A DNA stretch of 64,000 nt from sequence record NC_018855.1; one strand, 5' to 3'. This document shows, piece by piece, positions 7,607-9,426 of the stretch. Positions within the stretch are counted from its first letter, which is position 1, and every line of letters begins with the position of its first letter. This stretch comes from Escherichia phage HX01. A program made the translations under genes and the position numbers. Below the pieces are notes generated by a model that was not told where the DNA came from, did no database searches, and was given only the letters and a program-made list of their open reading frames with translations.

Positions 7607-7951
7607 ATGAATAAGCTGAATATTATTAACGAACTTCGTAAATGTGCAGAACCTACTCAGGAAGGATGGGATATTTGGTACCACGGGGCTTATCTTGGAA
7701 CTATAGTTAAAGTTAAAGCTGGGTTATATTTAATTATTCGCGAAAATTCTGAATTCCCTAATGGAGTAGCTCCTGGCGGTATACGTAAAAACTTTATGGC
7801 AGCGATCAGTTCATTTGTTGATGCCGCTTACGAAATCTATAAAGAAGATTATAAAGAATATCAGCAGTCACAACCGGTTATTCGTTCGATTGGTGTAAAT
7901 AAACAAGCACAAAAATCTATTTGGCAACGTATTAAGGAATGGTTTAAATGA
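7607..7951 (+). CDS. hypothetical early protein (114 aa)
   Basis: ORF tightly packed after motA, stop overlaps next start. Confidence 0.55.
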
Positions 7952-8409
7952 AATCATTTAAAGAACGTTTAGAGCTATTAGATTTGGCCTTGTCTCGTGA
8001 GACTCCTGAAAGTCTAGCAGAAAAATTACAGTCCTACGGTTATAATTATTCTGCTGATGATGTAATGAATGAAGTTCCTGAAATCTGTTGGCAAACGTGC
8101 TATTGGAATAATGACCAAAAAGTTCAACGTGTTATAGTATGTGCAGCTAATAGGTTTAAATTGAAGAGTGGTGGAACTCTGGTTATTCCTGGAGTTCGTC
8201 ATTACTCTAAAGATATGGCTGAAGTACTTGATATAGTTGGTCCTCAATTAGTCTCGCAACAAGTTTGTGGTGACGATCAAGGCTTTATCGACCAATACTC
8301 TAATTACTGGACTCGTGAAGAAGCAATGGTTATTGCAACGTATGCTGGACAGGTACGTATTGAACGTGGCGGAAGCGAGAAAGAACTTTATTCAGAGGAC
8401 CTTTATTAA
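7948..8409 (+). CDS. hypothetical early protein (153 aa)
   Basis: ORF with ATGA overlap to upstream gene; no motif recognised. Confidence 0.55.
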
Positions 8410-8690
8410 TGAATATTAAACAACTCCAGAAAGATGCTATTGAATCACGCATCCAAGATATCAAACGTCTTAATCATATGATGGAAGAAAACTATGGTAT
8501 GTATGCTAATCAGCCTGGTTGGGACGCTTTAGACCATCCTTATTTGGTTAATTTATGTAAAGGTGATACGTTAGCAATTATTCGTGATGGGTTAAAACCT
8601 TTCTTACGCGACATGTATATTAAAATGAACGAAGAAATTATTAGCTCGTTGCAATATCAATTAAGGAAATTAGATGATGAGAATAATTGA
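8409..8690 (+). CDS. hypothetical early protein (93 aa)
   Basis: ORF, start overlaps upstream stop (TAATG). Confidence 0.5.
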   Translation: MNIKQLQKDAIESRIQDIKRLNHMMEENYGMYANQPGWDALDHPYLVNLCKGDTLAIIRDGLKPFLRDMYIKMNEEIISSLQYQLRKLDDENN

Positions 8691-8892
8691 TTCTAAAGCA
8701 GATTATTTTAATTCTGTTAATGATAAGAATAAAGCTTTAATTCGCCACTTTATTACTGAGATGGGATACACTGACTCTAAAGATTTGAAAGAGCACATTA
8801 TCGAATGTTCTGTGGCTAAAAAGTTTTCTTTTACCGATAAATGTTTAAACGAGGTTATAAAGCATTATGAACAATCTTGTAGCAAAACATAA
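8674..8892 (+). CDS. hypothetical early protein (72 aa)
   Basis: ORF with AAGGA RBS, overlaps upstream gene by 17 nt. Confidence 0.45.
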   Translation: MMRIIDSKADYFNSVNDKNKALIRHFITEMGYTDSKDLKEHIIECSVAKKFSFTDKCLNEVIKHYEQSCSKT

Positions 8893-8975
8893 TTTCAATA
8901 AGGCTTCTGTTCATAAGGACAAGAAGAAATCAGAACTTCAATCTAAACGTAAACAAAAACATAAGGGTAAAGACT

Positions 8976-9275
8976 ATGCTTATTAAAATCAAAGAAAATC
9001 CTGCAACTGAACTTGTTATTCGATGCGAAGAACTTGCAGAGCTTTATCAGGTTAACCGAGAAGTATATCGTAGTGTTGTTGCAGATATGGCAGACGAAGT
9101 ATGTTCTCGTATTCCTTTTAGTGTTGATTTCAATCACATGAAGCCTGGTGAAATCACTATCGTCTTTGGTTCTGACTATACTGAAGAACGGGCTCTTAAT
9201 GCCCTAGAATATGAAATGTCGTTCTTCGACATACAGGACTATATTGATAGTTATAAGGAACGATATGAGTCATAA
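8976..9275 (+). CDS. arn: acidic small protein, possible anti-restriction nuclease Arn-like
   Basis: 99 aa acidic protein in the arn position between motA and asiA (T4 Arn about 92 aa); assignment by synteny and composition only. Confidence 0.45.
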   Translation: MLIKIKENPATELVIRCEELAELYQVNREVYRSVVADMADEVCSRIPFSVDFNHMKPGEITIVFGSDYTEERALNALEYEMSFFDIQDYIDSYKERYES

Positions 9276-9426
9276 TCTTCAGAACGTAGTAGAGGCCGAA
9301 CGTGAGCGTGAGGCTTTAGTCTATAATGAACTATTAGTTCCGTTCTTGGCCTTACACTCGTACGAACAGGAAGACTACACCAATTACGTTAAAAGCGTAG
9401 AAAAAGCCATTTACAATCAACACTGA
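9265..9426 (+). CDS. hypothetical small protein (53 aa; asiA.1 position)
   Basis: Internal ATG with AAGGAA RBS inside track ORF 9211..9426; the longer version would overlap the previous gene heavily. Confidence 0.35.
   Translation: MSHNLQNVVEAEREREALVYNELLVPFLALHSYEQEDYTNYVKSVEKAIYNQH

Follow-up and report, generated by a model that had tools for sequence, protein, structure and literature searches.

What occupies the 1.82 kb between motA and asiA, the genes for the middle-transcription activator and the anti-sigma-70 factor, in the genome of Escherichia phage HX01? We addressed this question in a 64,000-nt stretch of that genome (NC_018855.1; hereafter the window, with positions counted from its first nucleotide), which comes from a T4-like coliphage of the genus Mosigvirus, the RB69/JS09 group. 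A preliminary description of the interval, positions 7607-9426, had presented it as a "hyperplastic island" of six small early open reading frames (ORFs) that varies between T4-like phages. We find instead that the interval is, with a probability of roughly 0.78, the RB69-type (Mosigvirus) version of the known T-even prereplicative arn operon, which here comprises seven small genes with a divergent arn, ORF5, among them. The locus is mostly known; it yields the re-annotation of ORF5 as Arn and contains one large orphan domain family, Arn.3. The genes and their boundaries are as follows.

6964-7596, + strand: motA, middle-transcription activator (Pfam MotA_activ, 1.1e-39; MotCF, 4.6e-9), left boundary of the cluster
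7607-7951, + strand: ORF1, Arn.4 homologue, 114 amino acids (aa), basic (phrog_1594, E 8.6e-51)
7948-8409, + strand: ORF2, Arn.3 homologue, 153 aa, isoelectric point (pI) 4.7
8409-8690, + strand: ORF3, Arn.2 homologue, 93 aa (phrog_1844, E 1e-40)
8674-8892, + strand: ORF4, long form of Arn.1, 72 aa (phrog_4452)
8867-8986, + strand: ORF4b, DUF7230 micro-protein, 39 aa, lysine-rich, pI 10.2 (Pfam PF23876, phrog_1359)
8976-9275, + strand: ORF5, divergent Arn homologue and putative DNA mimic, 99 aa, pI 4.37, net charge -11
9265-9426, + strand: ORF6, AsiA.1 homologue, 53 aa, pI 4.9 (phrog_5245), equivalent to RB69ORF258c
9473-9745, + strand: asiA, anti-sigma-70 factor (Pfam AsiA, 2.4e-32), right boundary of the cluster

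The tight packing with frequent overlaps between motA and asiA that had been described is confirmed by the ORF list and by the Pfam matches of the flanking genes: neighboring cluster ORFs overlap by 1-26 nt, and a Shine-Dalgarno (SD)-like GAGG or AAGGA motif precedes each of them. All six ORFs of the preliminary description are present at the sizes it gave, but its count was one short, as ORF4b had been overlooked and 8892-8976, which holds part of this ORF, had been left empty. Apart from ORF5, ORF2 and ORF6 are also acidic. Differences from T4 at codon positions 1/2/3 amount to 16/12/50 in ORF1, 31/12/68 in ORF2, 19/10/29 in ORF4 and 5/5/14 in ORF4b, and this bias toward the third position indicates that the genes are under purifying selection. 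Judged from such substitution patterns, the cluster ORFs are real genes, and chance ORFs are ruled out. Every cluster ORF was assigned to a PHROG family, with "unknown" function for all but one mislabel, and scans of all ORFs against Pfam, NCBIfam and PHROG returned no functional family beyond MotA, AsiA, DUF7230 and the mislabeled PHROG. Searches with phmmer of the single ORF1-ORF5 sequences against PDB sequences gave nothing meaningful. The cluster products were thus correctly described as free of recognizable enzymatic motifs, with the 153-aa ORF2 as the largest product without a function; the ORFs are neither all well characterized nor untranslated.

The interval is collinear with the arn cluster of T-even phages

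The 1.82-kb interval is 99.9% identical at the DNA level to that of the Mosigvirus phage vB_EcoM-pEK20. Used as a query, it matches 210 phage records at the DNA level, 162 of them over at least 80% of its length. The T4 record lists arn.4, arn.3, arn.2, arn.1, arn and asiA.1 from motA to asiA, and the seven window genes are collinear with these genes and with an unannotated T4 ORF between arn.1 and arn. As in the T-even arn operon, motA, arn.4, arn.3, arn.2, arn.1, arn, asiA.1 and asiA follow one another in this order on one strand. Protein identities to T4, determined by BLAST/tblastn, are listed here.

ORF1 and T4 Arn.4: 75% over all 114 residues
ORF2 and T4 Arn.3: 74.5%
ORF3 and T4 Arn.2: 41%
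ORF4 and T4 Arn.1: 75% over 67 residues
ORF4b and the unannotated T4 ORF: 82%

The flanking proteins MotA and AsiA are 52% and 73% identical to those of T4, and the five window genes show similar or higher values. Genes, order and tight packing are shared with the T2/T4 arn operon (arn.4-arn.3-arn.2-arn.1-arn), which in T2 is reported as an abundant middle transcript with Arn as its sole characterized product (bioRxiv 10.64898/2026.06.19.733364). The RB69 reference has the gene set, layout and ORF sizes of the window, and its Arn.4 and Arn.1 are 86% and 99% identical to the window proteins. Its record names arn.1-arn.4, omits the DUF7230 ORF, lists the Arn homologue (RB69ORF259c) and the AsiA.1 homologue (RB69ORF258c) as "hypothetical," and labels arn.1 "anti-restriction nuclease." Gaprivervirus phages VR25 and PSD2001 share the layout of the window, and the arn block is common to Tequatrovirus, Mosigvirus and Gaprivervirus and extends to T4-like contigs that are more distant. 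Because the cluster is conserved and already named, the reading of the interval as a hyperplastic island is mostly wrong.

ORF5 is a remote homologue of Arn

T4 Arn (PDB 3WX4, phrog_3151) is described as a DNA mimic that inhibits McrBC. ORF5 belongs to a separate family, PHROG 8202, and the records of RB69 and related phages call it "hypothetical." Direct comparisons did not connect the two proteins. All 485 records returned by a similarity search with T4 Arn were from Tequatrovirus, at identities of at least 88%, and the ORF5 family was not reached; a search with ORF5 returned only Mosigvirus and, at ~30% identity, Gaprivervirus sequences without reaching T4 Arn, and pairwise BLAST and tblastn of ORF5 against T4 Arn gave no match. 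We then relied on a profile of the ORF5 family. When this profile was run with hmmsearch against 177,635 distinct PDB sequences, 3wx4_A was the top and sole significant match (E 4.1e-4), and the match was nearly full-length (ORF5 positions 13-92 against 11-93). The alignment of the ORF5 profile with T4 Arn by hhalign covered 81 collinear columns (E 5.9e-5, probability 65%), and the PHROG profiles of the two families (phrog_8202 and phrog_3151) matched each other reciprocally (E 2e-4 and 5e-3). A fold search with a predicted, template-free model, computed from an alignment of 14 sequences with no Arn among them, placed ORF5 in the Arn fold; the five AlphaFold2 (AF2) models had predicted local distance difference test (pLDDT) scores of 84, 73, 52, 48 and 42. 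In these fold and profile searches ORF5 matched Arn and neither Ocr nor ArdA.

Position and composition agree with this assignment. In the DNA alignment, ORF5, T4 arn and the VR25 gene all start in one column, each with its start codon overlapping the stop codon of the 39-aa ORF, and both the DNA alignment and the synteny tables place ORF5 at the conserved position between arn.1/DUF7230 and asiA.1. ORF5 has 21 acidic (D+E) and 10 basic (K+R) residues, compared with 16 and 7 for T4 Arn (pI 4.55), and its net charge of -11 stands beside -9 for T4 Arn and -15 for the VR25 counterpart. The preliminary description had pointed to an acidic ORF in the position of Arn, and had named profile searches and charge as the properties to examine; both bear it out, and likeness in fold and profile is stronger than the positional analogy it had drawn. 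Taken together, these results show that ORF5 is a remote Arn homologue with the same fold and a strongly acidic composition.

We also examined the position after the DUF7230 gene in other phages. A set of 78 viral contigs encoding a relative of Arn.3 was retrieved, all cluster genes were mapped on them by tblastn, and the 39 contigs with both motA and asiA were regarded as T4-like. An iterative hidden Markov model (HMM) search over 90 ORFs from this slot in the 39 loci converged on 18 acidic proteins of 87-99 aa, which form about six sequence types; the same search gave no false match among 244 six-frame control ORFs of the window. The matching ORF is the first after DUF7230 in 17 of the 18 loci, and in locus L027 an 88-aa ORF comes before it. 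Arn is not limited to Tequatrovirus; its family diverges fast, with six or more sequence types sharing a single conserved slot, a pattern expected of an arms-race protein. These types provide a natural panel for testing how target specificity changes in DNA mimics, a topical matter given that single-residue differences between T4 and T2 Arn are reported to switch the inhibition of a new defense system (PMC12871103). The assignment also corrects a systematic annotation error, in which the Mosigvirus Arn homologue, that of the RB69 reference included, is called "hypothetical" while arn.1, arn.3 and arn.4 are called "anti-restriction nuclease." The anti-restriction repertoire furthermore bears on the host range of phage-therapy Mosigviruses like this one.

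Function of ORF5 and alternative readings of the interval

T4 Arn is reported to inhibit McrBC restriction of non-glucosylated hydroxymethylcytosine (hmC) DNA and to bind H-NS, and it is modeled as a DNA mimic (EcoSal review PMC12707154). It is also reported to block a PUA-Cal-HAD defense system with single-residue specificity: N70 is described as critical for this inhibition, and one substitution within the Arn family as enough to change specificity (PMC12871103). Its reported targets are thus the type IV enzyme McrBC, which cuts hmC DNA before sugar modification, H-NS and the PUA-Cal-HAD system (PMC12707154, PMC12871103). By analogy, the most likely role of ORF5 is DNA mimicry directed against McrBC-like defenses. 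In the mechanism that we propose, the seven genes and motA would be read as one polycistronic early/middle transcript with translational coupling; ORF5 would occupy the DNA-binding site of host proteins by DNA mimicry, as reported for T4 Arn, and would in this way protect newly replicated phage DNA. Only ORF5 can be given a mechanism, and the other six genes form a conserved core. Ocr of T7 and ArdA of Tn916 are likewise small, very acidic, early-expressed blockers of DNA-binding defense enzymes, the mode of action proposed for Arn and ORF5, although the EcoSal review describes their families as not homologous to Arn (PMC12707154).

Several observations weigh against this interpretation. ORF5 and T4 Arn are only 16-17% identical, N70 of T4 Arn is not kept in ORF5 and aligns with a Thr, and just one of the five AF2 models is confident. 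AlphaFold was trained on 3WX4, so memorization is possible, and the sequence-only profile match is independent of that. McrBC, or any other target of ORF5, is a prediction. Co-transcription of the cluster is inferred from its layout and from T2, and the ArcZ/RNase E control elements of the T2 type are lacking here. RB69 DNA carries arabinosyl-hmC, not glucosyl-hmC (PMC6024577), so that the phage of ORF5 and that of T4 Arn differ in the sugar on their DNA, and the restriction threats relevant to Mosigvirus may differ. It is possible, though we consider it the weaker case, that ORF5 keeps the Arn fold but has been retargeted and inhibits a DNA-binding defense or nucleoid protein other than McrBC, such as H-NS, GmrSD/BrxU-type type IV enzymes that attack sugar-modified hmC, or PUA-Cal-HAD-like systems. 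An identity of 16% combined with a conserved fold implies rapid evolution of the surface, six or more sequence types occur in the slot, the Arn proteins of T4 and T2 are reported to differ in PUA-Cal-HAD inhibition with only three residue differences (PMC12871103), and arabinosylated RB69 DNA is reported to be attacked by some GmrSD enzymes (PMC6024577). Yet arabinosylation in Mosigviruses starts from hmC DNA, which leaves nascent DNA exposed to McrBC (established knowledge and PMC6024577), and ORF5 has retained the acidic composition.

Two further readings concern the interval as a whole. The first takes the interval for a hyperplastic cargo island whose small ORFs would each be specific to a lineage and freely exchanged, and would serve anti-restriction or host takeover. 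The survey of 39 loci bears on it directly; as it was seeded on arn.3, Arn.3 is present by construction and loss of the whole block would not be visible. The tblastn counts were as follows.

Arn.4: 39/39 loci
Arn.3: 39/39 loci (by construction)
39-aa ORF4b: 39/39 loci
Arn.2: 31/39 loci
Arn.1: 21/39 loci
AsiA.1: 18/39 loci
Arn of recognizable type: 11/39 loci (18/39 by HMM)

The low counts for Arn and AsiA.1, the absence of arn.1 and arn.2 from some loci, a stretch from the 39-aa ORF to asiA that ranges from 222 to 1069 nt and can hold unrelated extra ORFs, a ~360-nt insertion between arn.4 and arn.3 at some loci, and recombinant mosaics all favor a cargo island. Among the mosaics, the IMG/VR locus L006 combines Mosigvirus motA/arn.4/arn.3 with Tequatrovirus arn.2/arn/asiA.1 through a junction within arn.2, and locus L009 has window-like flanks (99-100%) around an arn.4 and arn.3 that are only 79-80% identical. 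Against it stand the presence of arn.4 and DUF7230 in every locus (and of arn.3, by selection), the constant gene order across the 39 loci, the extensive DNA-level coverage of the query among phage records, and the identity to T4 of five window genes (41-82%), which is comparable to that of the essential flanking regulators. These counts indicate that the proximal 1.4 kb is a conserved core and that only the distal slot deserves to be called "hyperplastic." Gene content that differs between genera was found in 8976-9426 and in the loss of arn.1 and arn.2, and not in 7607-8986 (in this arn.3-seeded survey). What stands of the earlier claim that the interval varies between T4-like phages is therefore plasticity in three respects, namely the distal slot (Arn type, presence of AsiA.1 and extra cargo), the occasional loss of arn.1 or arn.2, and recombinant mosaics, whereas for 7607-8986 a cargo island is largely refuted; for the interval as a whole we consider it improbable. 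In the second reading, some small ORFs would be non-coding and would owe their conservation to RNA or regulatory elements; the main candidates are ORF4b and the N-terminal extension of ORF4, both of which overlap neighboring genes. ORF4b, which at its two ends overlaps ORF4 and ORF5, was not called by the annotators of T4 and RB69, and in the T2 study the counterpart of the ORF4 N-terminus is taken for a 70-nt intergenic regulatory region containing an RNase E site. Nevertheless, ORF4b is an intact ORF of 38-41 aa with its own SD motif in ~40 related loci, with or without arn.1 upstream, shows substitutions mainly at third positions, and matches Pfam DUF7230 (PF23876) at 47.5 bits, above the cut-off of 27 (E 1.9e-12), as do 15 of 15 variants tested. 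The N-terminus of ORF4 is open and 75% identical in T4, with an ATG and SD motif here and a TTG and SD motif in all Tequatrovirus loci, and an Rfam scan of the region matched no RNA family. A non-coding origin is thus very improbable.

Transcription and regulatory sites

Three promoter-like sites were found around the cluster.

6577-6604, + strand: early-type sigma-70 promoter-like site (TTTACA, 16-nt spacer, TG, TATTAT; 10/12 matches, extended -10), upstream of a 71-aa ORF at 6644-6859
6899-6926, + strand: second, near-identical early-type copy (TTTACA or TTTACT, 16-nt spacer, TG, TATTAT), upstream of motA
9410-9438, + strand: promoter-like site in the 46-nt gap before asiA (TTTACA, 17-nt spacer, TG, TACTAT), a consensus match only

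The site at 6899-6926 is probably the start of a transcript able to read through the whole cluster. No terminator-like site was found on the + strand of 6400-9900, and no MotA-box middle promoter (TGCTTnA, 10-14 nt, TAnnnT) in 6400-9800; TGCTT motifs at 6585 and 6907 sit within the early-type promoters. The abutting and overlapping genes that follow motA without a terminator argue for one polycistronic early/middle transcript with translational coupling, and co-transcription with motA is probable. The two early-type promoters belong to an 86-nt cassette that is present as a direct repeat 322 nt apart (6567-6652 and 6889-6972, 84-91% identity). Each copy comprises the promoter, a leader, an SD motif and the first codons ATG TCT AAA (MSK), and one precedes the 71-aa basic ORF (phrog_6200) and the other motA.

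In T2, the arn operon is described as a middle transcript stabilized by the host small RNA ArcZ (bioRxiv 10.64898/2026.06.19.733364). The 10-mer with which ArcZ pairs, CCAGGGAAAT, lies at the 3' end of arn.2 in T2/T4; it does not occur in the cluster within one mismatch, and none of its 7-mers or 8-mers occurs in 7501-9500. The 10-mer is confined to loci with a T4-type arn.2, and GCATT, the RNase E motif GCAUU, is replaced by CCACT at the aligned window position. Pairing site and RNase E motif are both lacking in the window and in every locus without a T4-type arn.2, and the homologous stretch of the window is the ATG-initiated coding N-terminus of Arn.1. By sequence comparison, the ArcZ/RNase E elements appear as a regulatory feature of the Tequatrovirus version and not of the arn gene set.

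The same stretch bears on the start of arn.1. The similarity between ORF4 and T4 extends into a stretch that is annotated as intergenic in T4/T2, and the "70-nt intergenic region" between arn.2 and arn.1 of T2 aligns in frame with the ORF4 N-terminus (window 8674-8760; T4 L003 2807-2893, - strand); in T4 this stretch is an uninterrupted reading frame with 75% protein identity. In T2 it was treated as an intergenic RNase E/ArcZ regulatory element (bioRxiv 10.64898/2026.06.19.733364). At the position of the ORF4 start, every Tequatrovirus locus carries a TTG preceded by the SD motif GAAGGTGA. Because the ArcZ site CCAGGGAAAT is directly 3' of this TTG, ArcZ pairing could act on the initiation of long-form arn.1 in addition to RNase E access.

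Arn.3 is a widespread domain family

ORF2 consists of a variable N-terminal helical part and a conserved C-terminal core (approximately residues 45-153). No model of a local Pfam copy matches it, while its relatives carry a precomputed PF26092. An alignment of 74 Arn.3 sequences contains the invariant residues A66, A67, R84, H85, Q111, G112, F113, D115, R123 and Q135, and nearly all of the sequences end in LYSEDLY at the extreme C-terminus. The polar set (R84-H85, D115, R123, Q111 and Q135) and the fixed LYSEDLY hint weakly at an enzyme or a protein that binds a small ligand, and less at simple mimicry of a protein. A search with the Arn.3 profile of 1.84 billion cluster representatives yielded 5,079 clusters at E 1e-3 or below and 1,789 at 1e-10 or below. 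These Arn.3-core proteins are mostly stand-alone proteins of 90-130 aa, and the domain is always C-terminal; among ten longer ones (244-434 aa), the N-terminal extensions contained no Pfam domain.

The Arn.3 model is confident (pLDDT 90) and has no match among solved structures. A Foldseek search of the core against BFVD returned uncharacterized phage proteins, weak matches to segments of polyvalent proteins and one "putative polynucleotide kinase." In three phage large polyvalent (LPD-containing) proteins, a segment aligns with the core at Foldseek probability 1.0 (E 4e-3 to 1.5e-2, 22-26% identity). These matches are weak, and Arn.3 and its relatives contain no Pfam LPD family; unlike the polyvalent proteins, the T-even Arn.3 is a stand-alone protein of 153 aa. 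The similarity, as modeled, is consistent with a portable effector module. A macro-domain likeness suggested by a "VCAAN" motif was rejected, as neither fold nor Pfam searches found a macro domain.

Beyond T4-like phages, the Arn.3 domain occurs without the other arn genes, including on contigs of 215-317 kb, and 37 neighbor proteins of stand-alone homologues in phages that are not T4-like contained no recurrent partner. Single neighbor matches were scattered (NADAR, DUF4326, cREC_REC, T4-type RNA ligase, metallophosphoesterase, lysozyme and IstB). In such non-T4-like phages of ~145-153 kb, stand-alone genes for the Arn.3 core lie beside NADAR, metallophosphoesterase, T4-type RNA ligase and cREC_REC (IMG/VR loci L045 and L061, +2; L051-L053, +1 and +2; L052, -1). 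These families are linked to the reversal of ADP-ribosylation and to RNA repair, and each association is found in one group of related contigs.

The Arn.3 core thus extends from T4-like phages to jumbo phages (215-317 kb) and phages of ~150 kb, and it also occurs as a segment of polyvalent proteins. We tentatively suggest, as an idea that is rather unlikely in this full form, that Arn.3 is a widespread phage effector with a new fold and a ~95-aa core, acting as an enzyme or as a nucleotide-signal "sponge" against host immunity, and that the arn operon is a multi-gene counter-defense module with Arn as its characterized tip. The T2 study likewise speculates that the arn operon is a counter-defense module (bioRxiv 10.64898/2026.06.19.733364). 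Both Arn.3 and the DUF7230 micro-protein are conserved and unstudied, which makes them more promising than the variable ORFs for functional studies. The IMG/VR locus L018 has two copies of arn.3 in tandem.

Annotation of the remaining cluster genes

Homologues of arn.1, arn.3 and arn.4 have come to be called "anti-restriction nuclease" (phrog_4452, UniRef and PGAP-style records such as MZ868638 and NC_004928), which is also the label of the ORF4 family in phrog_4452 and in the RB69 RefSeq record. A link to restriction is known for none of these three genes, and the spread appears to stem from the gene names alone.

Arn.4 (ORF1), a protein of ~110-114 aa, starts with ATG in 43 of 44 related sequences, six other Tequatrovirus loci included. 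The T4 reference has ATA in place of this ATG (L003 ~3955-3957, - strand, aligned to window 7607-7609), and 42 codons upstream of its annotated arn.4 are still open and conserved. A start-codon change particular to this strain, or else a quirk of sequencing or annotation, would seem to explain the 68-aa arn.4 of the T4 record. ORF3 (Arn.2) is the fastest-evolving of the proximal genes.

For ORF6, the ORF list also gives a longer version (9211-9426, 71 aa), and the 53-aa ORF begins at an internal ATG at 9265. The latter start is the right one, as indicated by an SD motif and by the N-terminus MSHNL, common to RB69ORF258c, Gaprivervirus and T4 AsiA.1. Comparison with T4 AsiA.1 by hhalign matched the N-terminal 28 residues (probability 94%, E 1.5e-7), and on this sequence evidence we assign ORF6 as an AsiA.1 homologue.

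Two observations concern ORF4b. We considered whether it is an ArfA ribosome-rescue factor and rejected this candidate, as hhalign with E. coli ArfA gave a probability of 0.3% over 6 columns and ORF4b had no Pfam ArfA match even at E values of up to 10. In pEK20, the closest relative (MZ868638; L001 2761-3168, corresponding to window 8867-9275), the stretch that matches the interval has 1,819 nt compared with 1,820 nt in the window, and this one-base difference probably fuses the DUF7230 ORF and ORF5 into one annotated coding sequence of 135 aa. A sequencing error and a natural frameshift are the two possible causes of the fusion; in most other Mosigviruses the two ORFs are separate, as in the window.

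Downstream of asiA, the - strand of 9746-14290 encodes holin t (219 aa), a T4-type gp38 tail-fiber assembly protein (183 aa) and the gp37 distal tail fiber (1097 aa), and the C-terminal region of gp37 contains His-rich GxHxH repeats.

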